Shown: positions 6,422 through 50,480 of the stretch, in pieces | Layout of the letters: the number at the start of each line of letters is the position of its first letter | Numbering within the stretch: position 1 is the stretch's first letter | Assembly: GCA_947626695.1 (NCBI GenBank) | Contig: CANQTE010000001.1 | Location: 14 to 64,013, forward strand | Length of the DNA: 64,000 bases | DNA from: an uncultured Bacilli bacterium | Lineage (GTDB): Bacteria; Bacillota_I; Bacilli_A; RF39; UBA660 | Direction: 5' to 3' | The notes under the pieces: model-generated | The model's input: only the letters and a program-made list of their open reading frames with translations | The model's database searches: none | Told to the model about the DNA's origin: nothing | Position numbers and translations under genes: made by a program

Positions 6422-8323
6422 CTAATTTTCAGCGACAAAACATATTCCTGATAATGATACTGCGTCAAAAGTAACATCATTGTTTAATGTTATTTGACCA
6501 TTAGATGCAACTTGTACCCAAATAAACATATCGCTACCATAACCACTTGCTAAGGCAAATCTATTGTAATTGCCTGCTGGCCTAAAACCAGATGGCAATG
6601 TTGCTATTGTTCTATTAGTTGTAGTTGTTCTACCAATTAAACCTCGCAAATAAACAACTCCATTAATCTTATAATACATAGGCCTATCTGCACTATATCT
6701 ATAATTGTAACCACTATTTAACGATAAAGTGCCACTTTCCATAGCTGTTTGATTATATAACTCCTGCACTCCTTTTAGTGCAAGGGTAGCTAAGGAATAA
6801 ACATTAATTTTCTTATGTTCTCCATCTTGGACTATTGAAGGCGTGTAATACCCATCAGATGGGACATCCTCCTCATTATCTGCAACTAAGCCTAATTGAT
6901 AAACTGGAAAACCAAAACTATCCTCATAACTATATTGAGCAATATCAATTCTTGCAATTTCTTCTAAAAAACTATCGGCATGGCTTAAATTTTCATAATC
7001 ACTTTTTAAAGCTGGAACTTCATACCGCTTAGCTTCTACTCCGCCATCTATAGTTGCACTAGTACTACTATAAAAAGAACCCAAACTATCAGGAAACGTA
7101 TTAACATTAAACATTGTTATACTGCCTGGTCTTATAAACATTGTATTTCCATAACTATCAGAAAAATGTATCTGATTAGAGCGAAAAGAAATTTGCTCTG
7201 TATCTGAAATTATTGAAAGATGTGGGTTATTCCCACCATCATCTTTTATGGTTACGTCCCCGTTTTCACTTAGAGTAAAGTGTTCACTTACAACGTTCAT
7301 TTTTTGCGTAGTTAAATCTATTGTTGTGCCTTCAAAACTAATTTTATCTGCTTTAATTTTTGCTTCTGACGTTCCATCATTATTTATTAATCCGATTATA
7401 GCCTCCAATGTAAAATCAGTGGCATTTAATTTTAGTGCTATTTCTTTTGATTGCACATCTAATTCAGAAGAAAAAGCTGTAAATTTGCCTTCTGTTTCTT
7501 CTTTAAATTCGGCAACAGATACATTAATATTACCTACATCAACTTTTAAACTTGATATTTCTGTATCATAATACTCATACTTTTCATTTGCAGTTTCAAT
7601 TATTTTTTGAGTAGTAGAGGTAACCTCACCTAAAATACTATCTCTTGTCGTTTCAAGTTGAACACTAGTTGCATATGTTGCACTAACATCTTCTTTAAAC
7701 TGATTTAAAACTGCCTCAACATTTTTAGCATAATCATCATTGGAATAATCAGTTGCTTTTATCCAATCTACTTCATTAAAATCACCTTCCGTTCTTTTCG
7801 CTCGACATCTATATAAATCTTTATCTTCTTTAATCCATAAATCTCCTACTTCATAAGGTGGTATAGGTTCTGTTACAAATACTTGCCTTTTTTTATCTGC
7901 TGTATCTTGTGCTGAATTAGCAAGTGCTAGAGCTTCTACTACATCTGTATCTTTTATTTCTATCCATTTAAATACATTATCATTTAGGGAAAATCTATAA
8001 GCATAACCAGTATCTTGGTCATAATATAAATCTCCCAAATGATTATTCTTAGTAACATCATCTAGCCACTCATTTGCAGGAGCATTTTCAAGTGTTGGAA
8101 TACCTTCAAAAAACCAAGTAGTTATATTTCCATCTACTTGGTCTTGAAGTGTTTTTAAATCTTTTGTAACAGCATCAGCAAAATTTTTAATAAGTGTATC
8201 TGTACTATTCAAATTTCTCTCTAAAGAAGTAATAGTTTTTCTATCTTTAACTAAATTATTTAAATTATATCTGCGTATTAAATCTTCAGCAGTAATAGCT
8301 TTACTATAATCATTATAATTCAT
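6422..8323 (-). CDS. Tail spike or receptor-binding structural protein
   Basis: 633 aa, downstream of the giant virion protein, with a Gly/Ser/Thr-rich beta C-terminus. Confidence 0.4.
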   Translation of the reverse strand: MNYNDYSKAITAEDLIRRYNLNNLVKDRKTITSLERNLNSTDTLIKNFADAVTKDLKTLQDQVDGNITTWFFEGIPTLENAPANEWLDDVTKNNHLGDLYYDQDTGYAYRFSLNDNVFKWIEIKDTDVVEALALANSAQDTADKKRQVFVTEPIPPYEVGDLWIKEDKDLYRCRAKRTEGDFNEVDWIKATDYSNDDYAKNVEAVLNQFKEDVSATYATSVQLETTRDSILGEVTSTTQKIIETANEKYEYYDTEISSLKVDVGNINVSVAEFKEETEGKFTAFSSELDVQSKEIALKLNATDFTLEAIIGLINNDGTSEAKIKADKISFEGTTIDLTTQKMNVVSEHFTLSENGDVTIKDDGGNNPHLSIISDTEQISFRSNQIHFSDSYGNTMFIRPGSITMFNVNTFPDSLGSFYSSTSATIDGGVEAKRYEVPALKSDYENLSHADSFLEEIARIDIAQYSYEDSFGFPVYQLGLVADNEEDVPSDGYYTPSIVQDGEHKKINVYSLATLALKGVQELYNQTAMESGTLSLNSGYNYRYSADRPMYYKINGVVYLRGLIGRTTTTNRTIATLPSGFRPAGNYNRFALASGYGSDMFIWVQVASNGQITLNNDVTFDAVSLSGICFVAEN

Positions 8324-11300
8324 TACCAGTACACTCTCCCATCTCTTATTACAAATCCTAATTCTGTTAATATTTTTGTTTTTTCTTCTATTGTTAGATT
8401 TTTATTATTTATATATTCTGCGATTTCTTTATTATAATCATTAAATGTTTTATAATATTGCTTTATAAAGATAGCTCTCTGGGGAATACTTAAATTTAAA
8501 GAATTAATATATTTGATAGTCTCGGTTTTATCATCATCTGTATTATCTCTAATATTTTGAAGTTCTGTTTTATACTTTTGATATTTATCATAAGTTGTTA
8601 TATTAGTTATCACAGAATATTTATCTGGGTAATCAAGAGAATAATCTATCTCTTTTTTATTAGTATAATAATCAGATATTTTACCACCATTTGAAACATA
8701 TTCATTAATCTTATTATAAGTATTAGCCATAGATAAGCCTAAAGTTTCTTCTCTTGCTTTATTATAAGAATAATTTACAACATCATTTATAACACTTGCT
8801 TTATCTTCATTTGACATACTTGTATATTTACTATTTTTAAGTAAATCTTTCATAGTATTCTCTACTATATTACCAGAGATTTTTTGGAAATTAGCTCTAT
8901 CTTTAGAATTAAATTCTAGTAAGTTACCATCTTTATCTTTATATTTATATTCTGGAACTCTTGGCATAACTGATTTATCACCAGTTGCTTTATATACATT
9001 ATATATTTCTTCTGCACCCTTACTTATGTTTTCTGTATTTACATTTGCAGGATTTAAGAAAACATTAAATATATTATTTTTACCACCATATTTCTTTACT
9101 TCTCTACCCATAGTATCAACCGTAGGTGCAAGAGTTTTACTAACAAATGGTATTTTTGCTTTAACACTATTAATAGCGGATTTGATAGGCTTATCATATT
9201 CAAAAGATGTTCTTTGAGTTCCATCAACCATATCCGCGATTTGCTTTGAAAAAGTTGGAACTGCACGTGCTGGAAGTTCTAATATAGCTTCCTGTATGCC
9301 TGAAACAACTCCATCATTATTTGAAAATACTGTTTTTATACTTTCAAAAAAAGATTGTTCCAATAAAATACTTCCTGCAGTATTTAATGAACTTGTAGCA
9401 TTTTCCAATAATGTAGCATTTTCTTTTTGCTTTTGAACGATATTAGCCATTATTGATAAAGGCGCCGCAATTGGTTGAGCCCAATCATAAGTAAATGACT
9501 TATTTCCTATTTTTATTGAATAAGAACTTATGCCTAAAGTGTTTTTCATAAAATTAGATACATCTTTATCATCATCAGCTTCACCACTTATAACACCTGA
9601 TTTAGCTAGTGCATATCCTAAGACATATAACATTGTTCCAGCTGTTGCTTTTCCTAAGTCTTGAACAAATTTATGTTGCATTTGGGGAGTAAATTGTCCA
9701 TTAGTTAATGATTTTCTTAAATTATTACCTTCTACTAAAGTATTAATCATACCTACTGGAGAATAATCAACTATTGCTTTAGTTAAGTTAGCGGGTGTTT
9801 TGGCAAATGGTATCAAAATATCTCCTACACCATAACTGTCCATACCAGGTAAATGTATTTTATTTAACATACGTCTTATATCAAGTACAAATTTAGTGTA
9901 AGAGTTATTATCGTTCCAAGTTCTTTGCAAGCTTTCAGTTCTTGCTATATCTAACATATCTTGAGTAATTTCAGTAGTATTATTAAGTACCATTTGATTT
10001 TGTAAAGAATTTTCAAATGCTGCCTGACTAAATACTCTATCTCCAACGTCCATAATATAATTAAGCATACTTTCTACTTTATTAAGACTTTTGCCCATAA
10101 GAGTTTTATCATTAAAGTTTTTGCCTTCAGTAATTTCAAATCTATTGCCTTTCATATCTTTAGTATTAATACCTTTTTTATAATCATTAGTTGCCTGATA
10201 TGCTCCCTCTTTAATACCTTTTAGCATTGCTTTAATATTAGTTTTTCCAGTTGTTCTAACACCTGTTTTTTTAGATATAATTTTATCAGCATAGTTTGAG
10301 AATAAATCACTAAAAGAGTTTATTGGCATTATTAAAGCATTACCTGCAACGTTTCTTACTTGTGTTTTAGGATTAAATAACATAGATATACGCATCCATG
10401 ATTTTATTCCTGCACCTTTAACTGGTGGAAGTTTATCAGTCATAAGTTTTTGAATTTCGGCAAGTTTAACTCTTTTATCGTAGCCATCTTCCATAGTTGA
10501 TATTTCTTTCATGTTATCCATGATAAATTGTACTTCATCTGGTGTTAAGTCAAAATCCTCTCTATGTTTGTCTATCCATTCTTTAGATTTATTTTTTATC
10601 ATATAGTCGTACGCTTCTTGAAGCTCACTTTGAGCATATTTTACCATGCCTTCAGGTGTCATACGTTCCAAGATATTAAATGCTTGAACTGTTTGACCAG
10701 CAGTACTTCCAATTCTTCGCATAGTTTTAGCAATTTCAACCATACTATCATAATCTTTATTATCAGCATACTGTTTCATTAATATCCAGCCTTCTGCTAT
10801 ATCAACTGCTGTTGGATTTTGTTTCATTTGACCATTTTTATCTGGTGCAAATCTATTTTGCCAGTTTAAAGTTTCAGATAATCCACCATTATTAATTTTT
10901 TCAAATGCTTTTTCTAAGCTTTCTTTATTAGTAACTTTATCATAATATTTTACTTCTTCCTCAGATAATATTCTATTTTTTTGCTCATCATTTAACATAT
11001 TTACTTTATTTTCAATATTAGAAGCAAATCTACTATCTCCATCACTAGTTGTATTTCTATTAACAACTGGTAGTTTAGGAGTAGTATTTGCGTCTTCTTT
11101 AGTTAGTTTAGATATTTCTAATGGATTTAAAGTTTTATTATTTATATTGTTATTTACTGGTGGTAAGTTTATTTTATTTACATCTTTTGATGTAGGTAAT
11201 TTAATATCACTCATATTTGTTCTTGTACCAGATGTTTTATAATGTTTATCTAAGTATTCTTGCCATGAATTGCTGTTCTCGGAATATTTGGCATCAACTT

Positions 11301-14067
11301 TTGCATATTGTCCCTGCGTTGGGTCAATCCATGCAACATCTGTTAAATTAACTTCTTTTGAGTACACTTTCCCTGTGCCAGAATAACTTTCAGCTTCCAT
11401 TTTAGAAGGAGTTACAAATATTCCCTGCTCTATTGGATAAGAACTATACACTGTGATTTTACCAGTATTTAATGCTTCATTAACTATATCAGCACCATAA
11501 TCTGGGTCAAAGTTGTTGTTTTCCCAATCTTCCCAATCACTATCTTGCAATGTTTCTTCAAATGTTTTTACATCATCAATAGTTCGTATCCAAGTTGCAT
11601 TTTCATTGCCTGCTGGATTTGTTTTTAATACTATATCTAGCTGTTGTTGTTTTAACGTATTATTTTGGCTATTTTGCATAGAGTATTTAGTAGGTAATTT
11701 GACATTTTGGCTAGATTGTGGTATACTTTCAGTACTGGAATTACTAATGTTAGAGTATTGTACTCTTTCATTTAAGGTAGTTCCTTTTTTTGTGTATATT
11801 TTTTTAAAATTATTATTTTGTATATATTTTGTAATATTTTTTCTACCATATGCTGATTTAATTTGATTTTCTTCAATATATACATTATTATATGTTCCTT
11901 TACCATCTATTCGTATAGGTACCACTATATTATTACCCTGTTTATCTAATATTTCAGTAATTATTAAAAATTCATTTTGTGAAGTTTTATATATTTCTGT
12001 TGGATTATCTAAACTATCTATAACATTAATCAATGTTTCCTTCCCTAGTCCATGATAATTTACATTTTTTTCATACATATTGCTATTTTTTGCTTCTAAT
12101 TCGGTTAAAATAGTACTTTTTACATGTTTTGCTGTTATCAACATTGGCAAATCTTTTACACCATTATTTACCAAAATTTCAGGTGTAAAATCTCTAGCTT
12201 TAACTTGATTATTACTTTTATATTTTCCTGTTAACACTTCGTCAATCTCATTAGAGAAATTTCTACTAATATGGTAGTTTGCATTATTATTTAAATTATT
12301 AACAGCTTGTTCTTGAGTTGTATTTCTATAAGCAGTCTCCCATTTATTTTTCAAATCTCTAACAAATAATGCTTCATGTGAATTACCAGTTATTTTATTT
12401 GCTAGTGATATTATTGAATTATATATTCTTTTAAAGATACTAGGCTTTTCTAAAGATAAATTATTAATAAATTCTTGATTACCAAATAACTCTCCTGAAA
12501 TATCTGCTAAAACTTCACTAGATACGTCATTTGTTCTATAAGTTGTTTGTAAATCTTTCAATGCTACTTTAAAATCATCATGTTGACTTGCAAAGTTTAA
12601 TACTAAATCCTTCATTTCTTGAGTTTCAATCGCATGAGTTACTTCATGAATAATTAAAAACTCTCCTGATTTAGGAGAATTTGGATTTAATCTTATTTCA
12701 ATTTCACCATTATCTAACGTTTTTATTTGACCATTTACAGTCTTTCCTTCATCATTGACAATATTACTATCAAATATAACATTATAATCTTTATCACTTA
12801 TAATTTTTGAGATATTATCAATAAAGTTATGAGTTTGCTCACTATTGTTAAAATATTTACTAGCAGATTCACGTAAATTATTTACTTTAATGTTATCACT
12901 TTTTTGATATTGATAAACATTAGTAGGCTGTGAATTTTCAAGATTGCTCATACTATTTTTTACATTATTTTGTGATATTAAGTTTTCATTAATAGGAATA
13001 TTTGTATTTGGTAAGGGTAAATTAGTATTATTTCTATTATTTCTTGTTACCATATTAACAGTTGCTGGTAGGCCACCTACTGCACCTGCTAAAGTCCCTG
13101 CAAAGAAGTTTTCCCATAATTCTTCTTTATTAAATTTTTCTGCTAAACTAGGTGCATCTTTATCGACAACATTTTTAAAATAATCTAAAGCATGAGTTCC
13201 AGCATAATTAAGTAAGTATGATGCAATTTCTTCTGTTCCTTCACCTACTGCTTTAATACCTGCAGTTGCTAGTGTTTTAGCAAGTCCACTTTTCATTTTT
13301 TTAGTGACACCTTTTACTATTGCATCATCTAAATCTGACCCACCTAAGCCAAATGTTCCAAAAAGACTTTCTGATACACCTTCTGCTACTCCACCTAAAG
13401 CACCATTTAACCATACTTGCCAATCTTTAGCGCCTTTTTGAGTTGCCTCAGACATACTATTACTTGCACCACTTATCACAGATGTAACAGGCATATTAAA
13501 TGTCTTACCACCTATATTTAGAGGAATATTGCCATTAGCTCCTAGTAAGGCACTAGAAGTTACACCCATAGCATACATATTACCTATTGAATTAGCAACA
13601 CTATCTAATTTTTCACCCATAACAGAGTTTTTATCAACTATATTATCTACTGGCTTAAATACTTTATTAGTTAAACTTTCTGAAGCTGCTTTTCTTACTT
13701 CATCTGCATAATTTTGTATTCCTTTTGAATTAAATACTTTACCAGTCCAATCAATTACTTGTGCTCCTGCATAAGCTCCTAAATCTCCGATAGACTCGCC
13801 TGCACTTACTACACCTTTAGCAAGATTAGTTCCTATATCTCCTGCTGTTCCAAGTACAGTTTTAGTAAAATCACCAAATTGATAACCATCAGAAAAGGCT
13901 CCACTTTGGAACCATGTATTTTTTGTTTTATTTTTCTTTTTATTTTTAGTTGTTTGTTGCGGTATTTTTGCATCAAATACACTTTCAGCTTGTCCCTCAT
14001 AAGGAACTTTTCTATTATTAAAAGCTATATCTATACCGTATTTAGATACATCGCTTAATTTCACCAT
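8323..14067 (-). CDS. Giant 1914-aa virion protein with a Gly-rich N-terminus and an HExxH zinc-metallopeptidase motif
   Basis: The N-terminal GxxGG-rich region resembles tape-measure or ejection proteins. IIHEVTHAIE is an HExxH site. It is the largest gene in the structural module. Confidence 0.45.
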   Translation of the reverse strand: MVKLSDVSKYGIDIAFNNRKVPYEGQAESVFDAKIPQQTTKNKKKNKTKNTWFQSGAFSDGYQFGDFTKTVLGTAGDIGTNLAKGVVSAGESIGDLGAYAGAQVIDWTGKVFNSKGIQNYADEVRKAASESLTNKVFKPVDNIVDKNSVMGEKLDSVANSIGNMYAMGVTSSALLGANGNIPLNIGGKTFNMPVTSVISGASNSMSEATQKGAKDWQVWLNGALGGVAEGVSESLFGTFGLGGSDLDDAIVKGVTKKMKSGLAKTLATAGIKAVGEGTEEIASYLLNYAGTHALDYFKNVVDKDAPSLAEKFNKEELWENFFAGTLAGAVGGLPATVNMVTRNNRNNTNLPLPNTNIPINENLISQNNVKNSMSNLENSQPTNVYQYQKSDNIKVNNLRESASKYFNNSEQTHNFIDNISKIISDKDYNVIFDSNIVNDEGKTVNGQIKTLDNGEIEIRLNPNSPKSGEFLIIHEVTHAIETQEMKDLVLNFASQHDDFKVALKDLQTTYRTNDVSSEVLADISGELFGNQEFINNLSLEKPSIFKRIYNSIISLANKITGNSHEALFVRDLKNKWETAYRNTTQEQAVNNLNNNANYHISRNFSNEIDEVLTGKYKSNNQVKARDFTPEILVNNGVKDLPMLITAKHVKSTILTELEAKNSNMYEKNVNYHGLGKETLINVIDSLDNPTEIYKTSQNEFLIITEILDKQGNNIVVPIRIDGKGTYNNVYIEENQIKSAYGRKNITKYIQNNNFKKIYTKKGTTLNERVQYSNISNSSTESIPQSSQNVKLPTKYSMQNSQNNTLKQQQLDIVLKTNPAGNENATWIRTIDDVKTFEETLQDSDWEDWENNNFDPDYGADIVNEALNTGKITVYSSYPIEQGIFVTPSKMEAESYSGTGKVYSKEVNLTDVAWIDPTQGQYAKVDAKYSENSNSWQEYLDKHYKTSGTRTNMSDIKLPTSKDVNKINLPPVNNNINNKTLNPLEISKLTKEDANTTPKLPVVNRNTTSDGDSRFASNIENKVNMLNDEQKNRILSEEEVKYYDKVTNKESLEKAFEKINNGGLSETLNWQNRFAPDKNGQMKQNPTAVDIAEGWILMKQYADNKDYDSMVEIAKTMRRIGSTAGQTVQAFNILERMTPEGMVKYAQSELQEAYDYMIKNKSKEWIDKHREDFDLTPDEVQFIMDNMKEISTMEDGYDKRVKLAEIQKLMTDKLPPVKGAGIKSWMRISMLFNPKTQVRNVAGNALIMPINSFSDLFSNYADKIISKKTGVRTTGKTNIKAMLKGIKEGAYQATNDYKKGINTKDMKGNRFEITEGKNFNDKTLMGKSLNKVESMLNYIMDVGDRVFSQAAFENSLQNQMVLNNTTEITQDMLDIARTESLQRTWNDNNSYTKFVLDIRRMLNKIHLPGMDSYGVGDILIPFAKTPANLTKAIVDYSPVGMINTLVEGNNLRKSLTNGQFTPQMQHKFVQDLGKATAGTMLYVLGYALAKSGVISGEADDDKDVSNFMKNTLGISSYSIKIGNKSFTYDWAQPIAAPLSIMANIVQKQKENATLLENATSSLNTAGSILLEQSFFESIKTVFSNNDGVVSGIQEAILELPARAVPTFSKQIADMVDGTQRTSFEYDKPIKSAINSVKAKIPFVSKTLAPTVDTMGREVKKYGGKNNIFNVFLNPANVNTENISKGAEEIYNVYKATGDKSVMPRVPEYKYKDKDGNLLEFNSKDRANFQKISGNIVENTMKDLLKNSKYTSMSNEDKASVINDVVNYSYNKAREETLGLSMANTYNKINEYVSNGGKISDYYTNKKEIDYSLDYPDKYSVITNITTYDKYQKYKTELQNIRDNTDDDKTETIKYINSLNLSIPQRAIFIKQYYKTFNDYNKEIAEYINNKNLTIEEKTKILTELGFVIRDGRVYW

Positions 14068-38593: not shown

Positions 38594-38646
38594 GAAAAAA
38601 CTCCCTAAAATAGGGAGATTAAATCCACATGGCGGAGTAGAGAGGA
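38594..38646. repeat. attR core, overlapping the tRNA-Ser 3' end
   Basis: Perfect 53-bp copy of 12..64. It overlaps the 3' end of the minus-strand tRNA at 38630..38646. Confidence 0.85.
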
Positions 38647-38722
38647 TTTGAACCTCCGCGCCAGCATTCGCCGACCTAGATCCTTAGCAGGGACCCCTCT
38701 TCAGCCTCTTGAGTACTACTCC
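38630..38722 (-). tRNA. tRNA-Ser (anticodon GCU), long variable arm
   Basis: The reverse complement reads GGAGTAG...CUGCUAA...GGCGCGGAGGTTCAAATCCTCTCTACTCCGCCA. It has an acceptor stem, a T-arm GGTTCAAAT, the anticodon loop and an ~93-nt length. Confidence 0.8.
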
Positions 38723-44421: not shown

Positions 44422-45351
44422 GTGTTATTATATGCCCTCGAAAGGAGGAAATTCATGAAAATGAAAGAAAAAGTCTTTTTAAAGTTAAGTGATGATTTAC
44501 TATTTAAGGAAGCTTTTGCTCACCCAGATAATCGAGATATACTTATTTACTTTTTATCATGTTTTACTGACTTTACTAAAGAATATTTAGAAAGTGTAGA
44601 TATAAAAGTAGAATATGAAAGTGTTTTAACTAAAACAAAAAGTAACGATAGGTCTGTTCGAGGTGACGTCATAATCAAGTTTGATGGGCATATAATAAAT
44701 TTAGAAGCTTATTCTTCATTTGATAGAAATTCTTTTGATAAATCTATGTATTATATTATGAGAATATTCTCGACTCGAACTAATCGAGGAAAGAAAAGTT
44801 ATAAAAAACTAGAGAAAGTAATTCAAATAAATATAGTAGACGATGTAACACCAAAAGATTTAATCGAAAAAATGGTAGAAAATACTATGTCAGTAAAAGA
44901 TGCTAAAAATAATGAAATATATTCAGATATATTTCAAATAAAATATTATAGGCTTGACACCTTGAAAAAAATGGTATATGATAAAAACAACTTAAAACAA
45001 AGATGGCTTAAATTTATTTGTGCAAAAACTGCCGAGGAAAGAAAGACAATAGCTAAAGGAGATGAATTGTTAATGAAATTTGATAATTGGTGTGAAGAAT
45101 ATGTCAATGACGAGCAAACAAAAAAGATTTTTGCAGATTGGGCTGATTATATTGCCGAGAACAAAGGTATAAGAAAAGGAATTGACATGGGAATTGCTCA
45201 AGGTGCTTTAGAAAAAGCTTATGAGATAGCTAGAAATATGTATAATAAAAATATGAATATTAAAGATATCATGGCTATAACAGAACTTTCCAAAAAAGAT
45301 ATAGCTAAAGCAACAGGTTTATCTATGAAAGAAATACAAAGTTTAGCATAA
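44422..45351 (+). CDS. Rpn (YhgA-like) family PD-(D/E)xK recombination-promoting nuclease/putative transposase
   Basis: The N-terminus DLLFKEAFAHPDNRDILIYFL is typical of the TIGR01784-type family. The C-terminal helical domain reads GIRKGIDMGIAQG...ITELSKKDIAKATGLSMKEIQSLA. Confidence 0.65.
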   Translation: MLLYALERRKFMKMKEKVFLKLSDDLLFKEAFAHPDNRDILIYFLSCFTDFTKEYLESVDIKVEYESVLTKTKSNDRSVRGDVIIKFDGHIINLEAYSSFDRNSFDKSMYYIMRIFSTRTNRGKKSYKKLEKVIQINIVDDVTPKDLIEKMVENTMSVKDAKNNEIYSDIFQIKYYRLDTLKKMVYDKNNLKQRWLKFICAKTAEERKTIAKGDELLMKFDNWCEEYVNDEQTKKIFADWADYIAENKGIRKGIDMGIAQGALEKAYEIARNMYNKNMNIKDIMAITELSKKDIAKATGLSMKEIQSLA

Positions 45352-47012: not shown

Positions 47013-47055
47013 AAATAATTTACATAAAAACATCACTTACCTTTTTAAGTAAATG
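47013..47055 (-). terminator. Terminator downstream of leuS
   Basis: catcacttacc...gtaaatgatg hairpin followed by a T-run on the minus strand. Confidence 0.4.
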
Positions 47056-47067
47056 ATGTAATATTTT

Positions 47068-49884
47068 TTATTTAACAACAATATTTACTATTTTACCTTT
47101 AATAACTATTATTTTAACTATTTCTTTTCCTGTTATATATTTTTTTACATTTTCATTTTCTAAAGCTTTATTTTTAATACTTTCTTCATCTTCATTTATA
47201 GAAATAGTTACTTCCCCTCGAAGTTTACCATTTACTTGAACACCAATAGTTACTTCATTATCAACAGTTTTTTCTTCGTCATATTTAGGCCAAGATAGCT
47301 CTGCAATAGGTTTATAGCCTAATTCTTCATTTAATTCTTCCGTAATATGAGGAGCAATAGGATTTAATAAAATAAGTAATACTTGATAATCTTTTTTAGT
47401 TATTTCTTTTTTATCTTCATAGTTATTTGCTAAAATCATTAAACTAGATACTGCTGTATTATATTTCATTGTAGATAAATCATTAGTTACTTTTTTAATA
47501 GTTTTATGAATAATATTTTCTAAATCTTTAGAATATTCTTCACTTTGATTAACTTTATCTTTAAGTTTAATTATTCTATCTAAAAATCTCCTACAACCTT
47601 TAAGACCTTCATTACTCCATGGAATATCTTTTTCATAATCTCCCATAAACATTTCAAATAATCTTAAAGTATCTGCCCCATATTTATTTACAACATCAAC
47701 TGGATTAATTCCATTTCCTTTAGATTTACTTATTTTAGTTCCATCTTCCGCTAAAACCATACCATGAGCAACTCTCTTTTTAAATGGCTCTTTAGTAGGT
47801 ACTAAGCCTTGGTCATAAAGAAATTGATGCCAAAATCTCGCATAAAGTAAATGGCGAGTGGCGTGCTCCATACCACCATTATAATAATCAACCATACCCC
47901 AGTATTTAAGAGCATCTTTTCCCACAAACTCTTTATCATTATGAGGGTCCATATATCTTAACCAATACCAACTAGAACCAGCCCAATTAGGCATTGTATC
48001 TGTTTCTCTTTTCGCAGGTTTACCACATTTAGGACATGGAGTATTTACCCAATCTGTAATATTTGCAAGTGGGGATTCTCCTGTATCAGTAGGCTCATAA
48101 TGAGCAACAGTTGGTAATAATACAGGAAGTTTGTTTTCTGGAACAGGAACCCAACCACAAGTATCGCAATAAATCATAGGAATAGGTTCACCCCAGAATC
48201 TTTGACGAGAGAATATCCAATCTTGTAAACGATAATTAGTTGTTTTCTTACCAACATGATTTGCTTCTAAAAATTCTAACATTTTTTTAATTGCATCTTC
48301 TTTATTAAGACCATTTAGAAATTCAGAATTAATATGTTTACCATCACCAATCATAGCACCAGGATTTAGAGCATATAGATAAGTTTTCGCGTGAAGTTCA
48401 TCTTTAACTTCTTCTAATATAGTTTTTTTATCTACCCATTCACAATCAAATTTTTCATCATCATCTAGATTTTTAGAATCTTGTTCATAATTATCTAATT
48501 CAAAATATAGTCCTGTTGAATTAATATCAAAATATTTATCTTTATTATAAGCATAATAATGATGTTCAATAATTGGTAAAGTATATTTTAATGTTAAATT
48601 TTTATAACCTGTTTCTTCTTTTATTTCCCGTATAGCACAGTCTAAAGGACTTTCATTTTCTTTTATTGTTCCTCCAATAAATAAGCGTCCTCCTAATTCA
48701 TGCCAGTTAAGAGTTAAATATTTATCTTCTTTTTTATCATAGACAATAGCAACGATAGAATTTTTTTTGATTTCGTGCGTTTTAGGAGTACCTGTTTCTT
48801 CTGCTAGAACTTGAATAATTGGTATATTAAATTTCTTAGCAAAAGCATAATCTCGCTCATCATGAGCTGGAACAGCCATGATAGCACCAGTTCCATAACT
48901 TGCTAAAACATAATCACTTATCCATATTTCTATTTCTTTATTATTTACAGGATTAATAGCTACAAGTCCTTCTAATTTAACACCTGTTTTATCTTTAGTT
49001 ATATCTGTTCTTTCAATATCACTTTTTTCTTTAGCTTTTTCTTGATAAATATTTACTTCTTTAATATTTTTAATTTTATCTTTATATTTTTCTAAAAAAG
49101 GGTGTTCTGGAGACATAACCATAAAAGTTGCTCCAAATAAAGTATCACATCTTGTTGTAAATACTTTTAAGACATCTTCTGTTCCTTTAAGTTTAAAATC
49201 TACTTCAGCACCAATGCTTTTACCTATCCAATTTATTTGAGCAGTTTTAATTTTTTCTTCAAATTCTGTATCTTTAAGACCATCAAGTAACCTTTCAGCA
49301 TAATCACTCATTCTAAGTATCCATTGTGATTTTAACTTTTTAGTTACTTTAGAGCCACATCTTTCACATACTCCTCCAGCAGCATCTTCATTTGAAAGAC
49401 CTGTTTTACAATTAGGACACCAATTTATTTCTTTTTCACCTTTATAGGCCATACCTTTTTTATAAAATTGTAAAAATTGCCATTGGGTCCATTTATAATA
49501 TTCAGGGTCTGTTGTAGAAAATTCTCTTGACCAATCAAAGGACATACCTAAAGATTTTATTTGTCCTTTAAAAGTTTTAATATTTTCTCTTACAGCATCC
49601 TCAGGATAAATATGATTTTTTATGGCATATTGTTCTGCTGGAGCCCCAAAAGCATCCCAACCCATAGGAAATAAAACATTATAGCCTTGTAACCTTTTCA
49701 TTCTTGCCATGGCATCTAATGCGGAATAACTCCTAACATGACCAACATGTAAGCCAGAACCACTAGGATATGGAAACTCTACTAAAATATAATACTTTTC
49801 TTTAGTTCCTCCATTTTGAGCTTCAAAATAATGATTTTCTTCCCATTTTTTTTGCCATTTCTTTTCAATTTCAATATTATTCAT
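47068..49884 (-). CDS. leuS: Leucyl-tRNA synthetase carrying an inserted Nudix hydrolase domain
   Basis: HVGH class-I motif, editing-domain motifs (AVPAHDERDYAFAKK) and KMSKS-region equivalents are all present. At 938 aa it is ~130 aa longer than typical bacterial LeuS, because of an insertion carrying a complete Nudix box. Confidence 0.9.
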   Translation of the reverse strand: MNNIEIEKKWQKKWEENHYFEAQNGGTKEKYYILVEFPYPSGSGLHVGHVRSYSALDAMARMKRLQGYNVLFPMGWDAFGAPAEQYAIKNHIYPEDAVRENIKTFKGQIKSLGMSFDWSREFSTTDPEYYKWTQWQFLQFYKKGMAYKGEKEINWCPNCKTGLSNEDAAGGVCERCGSKVTKKLKSQWILRMSDYAERLLDGLKDTEFEEKIKTAQINWIGKSIGAEVDFKLKGTEDVLKVFTTRCDTLFGATFMVMSPEHPFLEKYKDKIKNIKEVNIYQEKAKEKSDIERTDITKDKTGVKLEGLVAINPVNNKEIEIWISDYVLASYGTGAIMAVPAHDERDYAFAKKFNIPIIQVLAEETGTPKTHEIKKNSIVAIVYDKKEDKYLTLNWHELGGRLFIGGTIKENESPLDCAIREIKEETGYKNLTLKYTLPIIEHHYYAYNKDKYFDINSTGLYFELDNYEQDSKNLDDDEKFDCEWVDKKTILEEVKDELHAKTYLYALNPGAMIGDGKHINSEFLNGLNKEDAIKKMLEFLEANHVGKKTTNYRLQDWIFSRQRFWGEPIPMIYCDTCGWVPVPENKLPVLLPTVAHYEPTDTGESPLANITDWVNTPCPKCGKPAKRETDTMPNWAGSSWYWLRYMDPHNDKEFVGKDALKYWGMVDYYNGGMEHATRHLLYARFWHQFLYDQGLVPTKEPFKKRVAHGMVLAEDGTKISKSKGNGINPVDVVNKYGADTLRLFEMFMGDYEKDIPWSNEGLKGCRRFLDRIIKLKDKVNQSEEYSKDLENIIHKTIKKVTNDLSTMKYNTAVSSLMILANNYEDKKEITKKDYQVLLILLNPIAPHITEELNEELGYKPIAELSWPKYDEEKTVDNEVTIGVQVNGKLRGEVTISINEDEESIKNKALENENVKKYITGKEIVKIIVIKGKIVNIVVK
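48361..48801 (-). other. Nudix hydrolase domain inserted in the LeuS editing-domain region (residues ~362-508)
   Basis: GGTIKENESPLDCAIREIKEETGY fits the Nudix box GX5EX7REUXEEXGU exactly. The insert lies between ...NIPIIQV and GDGKHINSEFLNGL, which are contiguous in ordinary LeuS. Confidence 0.7.
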
Positions 49885-50261
49885 TTTTTTCTTTCCTCCA
49901 TTTTCTTTAAGTATCTACCATATATCTCATATAAAGCATATATTAAGCTAAATAATAAGGCAAAGGCAATTAATAATTGTAAAACTATCATAATATCTAG
50001 AAGCATTACTATACTAGATACAAAAGATATAATAAAACTATTTAAAAGAGATATTACAATAATTACTTTATCTTTATTTAATTTCTTTTCATTTAGTTTA
50101 AATTTACTTACTAAATAATCTAATTCTCCAATTCTTTTTATTTTCTTTTTTCTTTTTTTATTTTTGTTTTCCATATTACTTAATTTTCTTTTATTAATAA
50201 AGAAATAATCAATTATAAAAACAATAATAAAGAGTCCTATAAACCAATAAAGTGTTTGCAA
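49881..50261 (-). CDS. Small basic membrane protein co-transcribed upstream of leuS (TTG start)
   Basis: A GGAGG RBS lies 8 nt before the TTG start. Two hydrophobic segments flank a Lys/Arg-rich stretch. The stop overlaps the leuS start. Confidence 0.35.
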   Translation of the reverse strand: MQTLYWFIGLFIIVFIIDYFFINKRKLSNMENKNKKRKKKIKRIGELDYLVSKFKLNEKKLNKDKVIIVISLLNSFIISFVSSIVMLLDIMIVLQLLIAFALLFSLIYALYEIYGRYLKKMEERKK

Positions 50262-50269
50262 ATAAATAC

Positions 50270-50470
50270 CTCCTTTAACTAAAAAAAGTGATTACCAAAG
50301 GGCGAGATAAACCCGCGGTACCACCTTTATTTATTACTCTTTTATTTATATAGGAATAACCCTAAATACTCTAAAAAGCAAGTTCATAAATTTTTATTAC
50401 TTAGTTACACCTACCCTAAGTTCTCTATAAATAAATTAATTTATTACTACTCTTTTCTTCAACATATTAC
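50270..50470 (-). promoter_or_regulatory. T-box leader (likely Leu-specific) controlling the leuS operon
   Basis: The minus strand carries AAAGGTGGTACCGCGGG, the conserved T-box sequence. An upstream AGAGA element and a candidate specifier ACUUA (CUU Leu) are present, and a T-run precedes the small ORF. Confidence 0.55.
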
Positions 50471-50480
50471 AAGTATTTTA

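Follow-up and report, generated by a model that had tools for sequence, protein, structure and literature searches.

Aminoacyl-tRNA synthetases are a main cellular source of diadenosine tetraphosphate (Ap4A), and Nudix enzymes hydrolyse this dinucleotide asymmetrically (PMC10148737). In the leucyl-, isoleucyl- and valyl-tRNA synthetases (LeuRS, IleRS and ValRS), a hydrolytic domain, the CP1 editing domain, is itself inserted in the Rossmann fold of the enzyme; CP1 cleaves mischarged aminoacyl-tRNA esters, whereas Nudix chemistry is directed at pyrophosphate bonds, and the two folds are unrelated. Here we analysed leuS of an uncultured Bacilli bacterium of the gut, which lies at 47068–49884 on the minus strand of a 64,000-nt stretch (the window; GC 26.7%) of contig CANQTE010000001.1 from assembly GCA_947626695.1. 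Its product, of 938 amino acids plus the stop codon, is predicted to be a two-enzyme polypeptide with a Nudix domain nested in a surface loop of CP1, i.e. a second level of nesting. The LysRS-Ap4A-NUDT2 axis has a similar logic, but it works in trans.

All sequence and fold criteria tested place the protein in the bacterial LeuRS family as well as in the Nudix superfamily. It matched the bacterial LeuRS model TIGR00396 (leuS_bact) at 957.5 bits (cutoff 548.4) in two stretches divided by the insert, and the LeuRS structure 1h3n at an E-value of 4e-210 in three stretches, together with a LeuRS domain architecture in Pfam. All the coding segments given here for leuS are on the minus strand. The N-terminal half of the catalytic (Rossmann) domain, located by Pfam and motif scan at residues 1–217 (49234–49884), includes the HIGH motif as HVGH at residues 46–49 (49738–49749). 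The part of CP1 before the insert spans residues 218–361 (48802–49233), as delimited by PF13603, the alignment to the Thermus thermophilus LeuRS and the motif scan, with the PF13603 match itself covering residues 218–373 (profile positions 2–153 of 185). The threonine-rich editing motif FTTRCDT (residues 242–248; 49141–49161) and the editing motif GTGAIMAVPAHDERDY (residues 331–346; 48847–48894) are intact; GTGAI and PAHDERD are present and align to residues 334–347 of the T. thermophilus LeuRS, and D345, counted from the alignment, pairs with D347 of that enzyme, which we take to be the universally conserved editing Asp. The remainder of the LeuRS, residues 513–938 (47071–48348), comprises the end of CP1, the second catalytic half, the anticodon-binding domain and the C-terminal domain, and holds the KMSKS motif as KISKS at residues 717–721 (47722–47736). 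A leucine-specific domain, which the T. thermophilus LeuRS has at ~580–637, is missing from the query (~residues 712–718). Across the closest set, which comprises 121 LeuRS sequences (query included) as 90%-identity clusters with 69–100% identity, the HIGH, KMSKS and all three editing motifs were intact in the query and in 119 of the 121 members.

Alignment against insert-less orthologues delimited the Nudix insert, hereafter type A, to residues 362–512 (48349–48801). An earlier note, made from the sequence alone, had put it at 48361–48801 (residues 362–508), which is essentially right except at the C-side end, which lies at about residue 512 (48349); the folded domain spans about residues 372–506 (48367–48771). 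The insert stands in for a CP1 loop of 14–15 residues in the closest insert-less orthologues, and for a loop of ~10 residues (370–381) of the T. thermophilus LeuRS in the alignment to solved structures, with the insertion point ~17 residues past the editing-site Asp (T. thermophilus Asp347). It is flanked by NIPIIQV (residues 353–359) and GDGKHINSEFLNGL (residues 513–526). Pfam placed a PF00293 NUDIX match at residues 377–499 (49.4 bits against a gathering score of 21.1, E 6e-13), between the PF13603 match and the remaining LeuRS domains. The Nudix box GTIKENESPLDCAIREIKEETGY (residues 405–427; 48604–48672) matched the strict pattern GX5EX7REUXEEXGU with every consensus residue in place (G405, E411, R419-E420, E423-E424 and G426); the box string GGTIKENESPLDCAIREIKEETGY covers residues 404–427 (48604–48675). 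The perfect Nudix box claimed in the note was thus confirmed, with the quoted strings lying where the note had located them.

In fold searches with the predicted structure, the insert adopted the Nudix alpha/beta/alpha fold. The full-length AlphaFold2 (AF2) model had a mean pLDDT of 84.8 and a pTM of 0.70, with values of 87–95 over the Nudix segment, and it showed ~7 coil residues between the last CP1 strand and the first Nudix strand and ~9 after the last Nudix helix; because these linkers are short, the guest domain would be held close to CP1. The Nudix domain is almost certainly genuine, and the idea that it is truly inserted in an otherwise canonical 938-aa LeuRS was borne out by the alignment with insert-less orthologues, the TIGR00396 match and the intact motifs.

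Within the closest set, the insert was present in 117 of the 121 LeuRS sequences, all of 935–948 aa, and the strict Nudix box was found in 117/117 of these (query included), with variation at the non-consensus positions of the box. The remaining four proteins (P0014, P0060, P0061 and P0094) are 797–799 aa long and carry no insert. A word-index search with the insert alone had returned just six fragments, and the real spread was revealed by full-length and exhaustive profile searches. A scan that took a single genome from each GTDB species confirmed 506 candidate stretches, of which some may be unrelated Nudix proteins matching the short search patterns; at least 80 insert-bearing loci were listed, with 52–74% identity. 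The strict box was kept in 80/80 of the listed species-level loci from metagenome-assembled genomes (MAGs), 72 of which have a complete open reading frame (ORF) of >900 aa. Thus the alignment proposed in the earlier note both delimited the insert and found the Nudix fold and box conserved. The relatives are mainly not the Clostridia that the note had presumed: the listed loci come nearly all from uncultured MAGs of rabbit, ruminant, human, chicken and mouse guts and are mostly labelled Bacilli, Erysipelotrichaceae, Tenericutes or Mycoplasmatota, with a minority labelled Muribaculaceae, Clostridia, Clostridium or Roseburia. The GC content of six loci checked was ~25–32%, similar to that of the window. 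One locus (L073), labelled Candidatus Paceibacterota and of 25% GC, has a type A insert in an ORF of just 220 aa, which probably reflects mis-binning or a broken contig and not a genuine type A case in the candidate phyla radiation (CPR).

The insert has evolved under constraints like those on its host. Mean pairwise identity was 0.70 for the insert versus 0.72 for CP1, and the Nei-Gojobori omega over the seven closest pairs was 0.054 for the insert and 0.051 for the scaffold; these pairs alone are informative, as dN/dS over the 80 loci was mostly saturated (median dS ~1.3). Judged from these comparisons, purifying selection acts on the insert as strongly as on the scaffold, and it extends to the catalytic residues. 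Invariant catalytic residues amid varying neighbours are the signature of a maintained active site, and from the invariant box the domain is likely to be catalytically competent.

The presence/absence polymorphism of the insert among close relatives could also be expected of an artefact or a selfish element, namely a chimeric assembly, a wrongly called ORF, an intein or a mobile insertion, a reading whose probability we put close to nil. An assembly artefact was rejected on finding the identical protein (P0007) in an independent assembly and the same architecture in 116 other 90%-identity clusters and at least 80 species genomes. The reading frame is continuous, the GC content of the insert matches that of the neighbouring sequence, and omega is ~0.05. 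An intein or mobile insertion was rejected because Pfam detected no Hint or endonuclease domain; for an intein in particular, the junctions IIQV|LAEE and AMIG|DGKH are without the splice-site residues (N-terminal C/S; C-terminal HN followed by C/S/T).

The same CP1 loop has a history of turnover. Three clusters (P0015, P0048 and P0071) have scaffolds 82–83% identical to the query and Nudix inserts just 27–32% identical to its own; this second kind of insert, type B, is 62% identical to P0283, a stand-alone gene beside ThrRS. The insert-less leuS genes are positional orthologues, since in loci L094–L096, as in the window, leuS is preceded by a small ORF and this in turn by a GH31 gene. A rough neighbour-joining tree built on the scaffold puts the insert-less and type B sequences in one group, nested among type A, and has type A alone on the deeper branches. 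The simplest reading of these sequences is that type A would be ancestral and was then lost, and that in some lines the same loop was taken by another member of the Nudix clade. Since insert-less orthologues are nested in the clade, the Nudix domain is not needed for LeuRS function itself; since type B sits at the same loop, Nudix domains were acquired there more than once.

These observations bear on a rival explanation, in which the domain is a passenger 'house-cleaning' nucleotide pyrophosphatase, acting on oxidised or non-canonical NTPs or on ADP-ribose, that rides in a large, essential and constitutively expressed gene of a small genome, with the CP1 loop as a permissive site and no coupling to leucylation. 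Close syntenic orthologues that lost the insert yet kept leuS are what a passenger would leave behind, and the CP1 loop is short and variable in other LeuRS proteins. The refilling of the same loop by type B, of the same clade, in sister lineages after the loss of type A is not so easily accommodated, and makes neutral hitch-hiking hard to accept.

A wider search placed the insert in a Nudix clade with a strong bias towards synthetases. The insert profile, searched against 1.84 billion cluster representatives, yielded 3539 matches at E ≤ 1e-3, 333 at E ≤ 1e-10 and 26 at E ≤ 1e-30, and LeuRS-like proteins with an embedded Nudix domain made up 102 of the 149 best 50%-identity cluster representatives. 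In query numbering, the embedded domains occupy at least four LeuRS positions, and each protein has between one and three copies. The majority lie after about residue 361, the site used in the query itself; other sites are after about residues 203–207, 230–237 and 613–615. Three NUDIX stretches were detected by Pfam in P0128 (1140 aa). Most of these proteins keep the editing and catalytic motifs, and the named hosts are CPR bacteria, e.g. KKP58971.1 (Candidatus Moranbacteria) and MCK5490653.1 (Candidatus Paceibacterota).

Other hosts and other guests occur in the same wider set, and they fit a passenger. MCK5490653.1 is a 1330-aa LeuRS with Nudix and Ham1/RdgB domains, for which the NCBI name is RdgB/HAM1 (P0171/P0276, 1330 aa), Ham1/RdgB being the ITPase family; one LeuRS has Nudix and Ser_hydrolase guests; an IleRS (TIGR00392, 775 bits) hosts a clade Nudix and a His_Phos_1 domain; and an M17 aminopeptidase with GNAT domains also hosts a clade Nudix. 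The multi-guest proteins include P0184 (1153 aa), P0247 (1345 aa) and P0272 (1318 aa). NTPases (NudI and MutT) and ADP-ribose pyrophosphatases, the kinds of enzyme that a house-cleaning role would call for, are also among the fold matches of the insert. Set against this is the overwhelming association of the clade with synthetases, seen in the share of LeuRS-embedded top representatives, in the number of sites and in the copies per protein.

Stand-alone members of the clade point in the same direction. Eight were examined, a small sample chosen by similarity to the LeuRS-derived profile, and in five of the eight the next gene downstream is that of a synthetase. P0283 precedes ThrRS by 87 bp, with MiaA coming after ThrRS; P0151 precedes ValRS by 4 bp and has a TsaD-like ORF before it; P0163 is found right before a 951-aa LeuRS with a Nudix domain of its own; P0220 is only 2 bp upstream of an insert-less LeuRS (TIGR00396, 946 bits in a single stretch); and P0183 is 40 bp upstream of a MetRS-like C-terminal fragment. 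Locus L086 has, at 40–1218, a stand-alone Nudix gene and, 40 bp further on, an ORF whose match is confined to the C-terminal half of MetRS (profile positions 303–506 of 530), which may represent a split or interrupted MetRS with the Nudix between its halves. In the window, tblastn with three clade members hit only the insert itself.

Taken over these sequences, the clade members are mostly found within class Ia synthetases or as genes directly preceding those of synthetases, and the query exemplifies a recurring association of a Nudix clade with synthetases. Such a combination, with the two genes fused in some genomes and adjacent in operon-like fashion in others, is classically taken as a sign of a functional link. 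We consider it reasonably probable that the function of the Nudix domain is linked to the synthetase and is not that of an unrelated passenger. The passenger explanation, for which genes directly upstream of LeuRS, ValRS and ThrRS and of a MetRS-like fragment are unexpected, appears rather unlikely to us, though it is the main rival.

An embedded sub-class, which does not include the query, shares a conserved non-canonical box, 'ITGGxExGQTxEEAAxxEIxEETGY', in which the first Glu is changed to Gln and the Arg is lost. It includes P0127, P0128, P0133, P0135, P0141, P0170, P0181, P0206, P0254 and others, and it is often the second copy in multi-copy LeuRS proteins; these copies may be catalytically altered or inactive. 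They lend some colour to a further alternative, that the Nudix fold serves as a non-catalytic module, i.e. a nucleotide-sensing, tRNA-binding or protein-interaction domain that modulates LeuRS in the manner of NrtR, since a LeuRS-embedded sub-class with 'GQT...A-x-E' for 'GE...RE' may have altered or lost catalysis, and the Nudix-fold regulators NrtR, AraR and NadQ were among the fold matches. In the clade of the query, the catalytic consensus is invariant in every insert-bearing sequence of both the closest set and the loci listed while the neighbouring positions vary, and a non-catalytic role seems very improbable there.

The host gene is that of the ordinary housekeeping LeuRS of the cell, probably regulated by a T-box. 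A probable T-box leader (Rfam RF00230) was identified at 50295–50471 on the minus strand, ~410 nt upstream of leuS and upstream of its transcription unit, with 87.8 bits and E 6e-20 over the full model length (1–219), just under the gathering score of 93. An Rfam scan of the whole window at gathering thresholds gave zero matches, and the T-box surfaced only with an E-value threshold. Its specifier was read from the alignment as GAA-CUU-G, and CUU (Leu) at 50380–50382 is the probable specifier codon; the conserved T-box sequence GGUGGUACC is at 50317–50325. Control of leuS by a Leu-specific T-box is typical of Bacillota and not defining. Between the T-box and leuS, a small ORF of 126 aa with a TTG start (49881–50261, minus strand) overlaps the leuS start by 4 nt; both its ends are hydrophobic on inspection of the sequence, and it had no Pfam match. 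ORFs of 136 aa and 131 aa hold the same position in loci L094/L095 and L096, respectively, the comparison being one of position only. A hairpin with a T run at 47030–47059 (minus strand), found by the consensus scan, starts 9 nt past the leuS stop codon; it is called a terminator on position alone, because the scan gave one site versus 1.1 expected by chance.

Elsewhere in the window, ARAGORN located a tRNA-Ser (GCU) at 38630–38722 (minus strand), where the Rfam scan at gathering thresholds missed even the tRNA model. A 1914-aa ORF at 8323–14067 (minus strand) carries a phage MuF C-terminal domain, as in the polyvalent proteins of mobile elements, and a PD-(D/E)XK family transposase-like gene lies at 44422–45351 (plus strand), 1.7 kb from the leuS terminator. 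These two genes suggest mobile-element content in the window that is unrelated to the LeuRS-Nudix protein.

The clues to the substrate are less specific than those to the partner. No curated Ap4A, RppH, MutT or ADP-ribose model of NCBIfam was matched above its cutoff by the query insert or by the clade members, and by its sequence the query protein belongs to no curated Nudix subfamily. Weak sub-threshold matches were spread over RppH, YtkD, NudB, MutT, NudE and NudI: the RppH models gave 16.3 bits for the query insert and up to 39.8 for clade members (cutoffs 116–259), and the MutT models TIGR00586 and NF008044 gave 16–18 bits (cutoffs 97.9 and 148). For most clade members checked, the weak best curated family was the RNA pyrophosphohydrolase RppH/NudH, while the top weak match of the query insert was the YtkD 'RNA deprotection' model. 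RppH/NudH also hydrolyses dinucleoside polyphosphates. In the fold search, ADP-ribose/NDP-sugar hydrolases, Ap4A and Ap6A hydrolases, RppH, diphosphoinositol polyphosphate phosphohydrolases (DIPPs) and NTPases followed 2azw with similar scores, and the search singles out no substrate class.

Downstream of the box, the segment HHYYAYNKD (residues 441–449; 48538–48564, minus strand) occupies the turn after the first strand following the Nudix helix, i.e. the 'X-loop' position, and the tyrosines Y443, Y444 and Y446 fall 16–19 residues past the box at this strand-turn position. Y444 and K448 show no variation in inserts of either type (A or B; columns Y85 and K89 of alignment A1), making them candidate substrate-contact residues, and a specificity tyrosine downstream of the Nudix box is a feature of ApnA hydrolases under the X-loop concept (Dunn 1999, as cited in PMC5389931).

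The lean of the weak matches towards RppH and YtkD could instead be taken to indicate an RNA-directed enzyme of this type, which would strip pyrophosphate or a non-canonical cap (Np4 or NAD) from an RNA 5′ end while the synthetase binds that RNA, tRNA-Leu being the most obvious candidate. In a tRNA, the 5′ end adjoins the 3′ acceptor end that visits CP1. In keeping with this explanation, the best PDB sequence matches after 2pqv include Dcp2 and Bacillus subtilis RppH, Escherichia coli RppH bound to RNA was matched in the fold search with a TM of ~0.66, and the tRNA-modification gene MiaA and the TsaD-like ORF adjoin stand-alone clade members. All such matches are nevertheless far under the family cutoffs, and the use of at least four different insertion positions in LeuRS speaks against an arrangement aimed precisely at the tRNA 5′ end. 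Mature tRNAs, moreover, normally have the 5′ monophosphate left by RNase P and so offer no obvious substrate. On balance an RNA-directed role appears improbable.

Hydrolysis of misactivated aminoacyl-adenylates, which the earlier note had raised as a further function, is chemically unlikely, because Nudix enzymes cleave pyrophosphate linkages and the cleavage of acyl-phosphate anhydrides is not Nudix chemistry.

Overall, with confidence that we would describe as evenly balanced, the best explanation is a T-box-regulated LeuRS with a nested, synthetase-linked Nudix pyrophosphohydrolase. In the mechanism that we propose, the synthetase-bound aminoacyl-adenylate would be attacked by ATP or another nucleotide to yield Ap4A, Ap3A or Ap4N; the Nudix domain would hydrolyse such dinucleoside polyphosphates near their production site, giving back AMP and ATP; and the outcome would be less alarmone output and less Np4A capping of RNA in these small-genome bacteria. 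Hydrolysis of Ap4A-type compounds in cis is the most economical mechanism because synthetases make Ap4A and Nudix enzymes cleave it, and the recurrent fusion and adjacency of the Nudix clade to synthetases fit a synthetase-linked role such as the clearing of Ap4A-type by-products. That ApnA is the physiological substrate, and that the domain hydrolyses these by-products in cis, is a tentative proposal of ours that we regard as possible and on the doubtful side. Held with similar reserve is the broader picture, in which a dedicated, hitherto unrecognised Nudix clade would partner with synthetases (mainly the class Ia enzymes LeuRS, IleRS, ValRS and MetRS, and also ThrRS) and would have been captured into LeuRS repeatedly and independently (at least four sites and up to three copies, in lineages that include CPR bacteria and one of gut Bacilli), acting in cis on Ap4A/Ap4N alarmones and cap precursors and controlling alarmone output at its source instead of through free ApaH or YqeK.

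Several observations weigh against a synthetase-linked ApnA hydrolase. Insert-less orthologues lie inside the insert-bearing clade, which means that the domain can be lost, and the Ham1, Ser_hydrolase and His_Phos_1 guests hint that LeuRS is a permissive host for passenger domains. Two of the eight stand-alone members do not adjoin a synthetase gene, and one more is on a contig too short to tell. Scores for curated Nudix families reached 16–40 bits versus cutoffs of 80–259, and in the fold search ADP-ribose pyrophosphatases, NTPases and RppH scored about the same as Ap4A hydrolases. LeuRS is not known to rank with the strongest Ap4A producers of the species investigated to date. Finally, the closest structure in the fold search, 2azw, is one whose function is listed as undetermined (PMC5389931).

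Few enzymes have been studied as thoroughly as the aminoacyl-tRNA synthetases. The architecture puts a second catalytic-type domain, from an unrelated superfamily, inside the editing domain of bacterial LeuRS. Should this domain act on the by-products of the synthetase, it would couple the production of Ap4A/Np4A directly to its removal in a genetically encoded way, and the long debate on whether synthetase-made Ap4A is signal or waste would become testable with one recombinant protein and a point mutant. If it is only a passenger, reduced genomes would repeatedly nest small hydrolases in an essential enzyme, lose them and replace them at the same loop. There is also a practical consequence: the NCBI pipeline names such proteins 'class I tRNA ligase family protein' and not leucine--tRNA ligase, and the architecture thus leads to mis-annotation of an essential marker gene in MAGs.

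In line with the earlier note, a LeuS-Nudix fusion appears not to have been described: a full-text literature search combining Nudix with LeuRS, synthetase, editing domain, CPR, fusion and operon returned no description of the fusion or of the clade association, and the text of a review of the Nudix clan (PMC5389931) contains neither 'tRNA' nor 'synthetase'. No curated NCBIfam model describes the LeuRS-Nudix architecture. Of the two nearest parallels in architecture, one is NF040702 of NCBIfam, 'isoleucine--tRNA ligase, N-acetyltransferase domain-containing', which is likewise a class Ia synthetase with an extra, unrelated enzyme domain; it differs in that the guest is GNAT and not Nudix, and the host IleRS and not LeuRS. 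The Enterococcus faecalis MutT/nudix family protein 2AZW, a structural-genomics target, shares 14–15% identity with the insert and is stand-alone, and with its function so listed it gives no functional lead. The other near parallel in architecture, the bifunctional NadM-Nudix NMN adenylyltransferase/ADP-ribose pyrophosphatase (e.g. 2qjo), is described as two fused domains, neither nested in the other (PMC7824862); its described activities are directed at ADP-ribose, according to the PDB title, or at NAD+ (PMC7824862), with no tie to translation. Also among the closest known systems are the asymmetric Ap4A hydrolases and RppH/NudH, which like the insert have the Nudix fold, the full box and aromatic X-loop residues, and which act on Ap4A, a product of aminoacyl-tRNA synthetases (PMC10148737). 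They occur as separate proteins, whereas the domain described here is nested in a synthetase and scores far under their family cutoffs. The LeuRS-Nudix protein is a new and widespread bifunctional architecture built from two well-known families.

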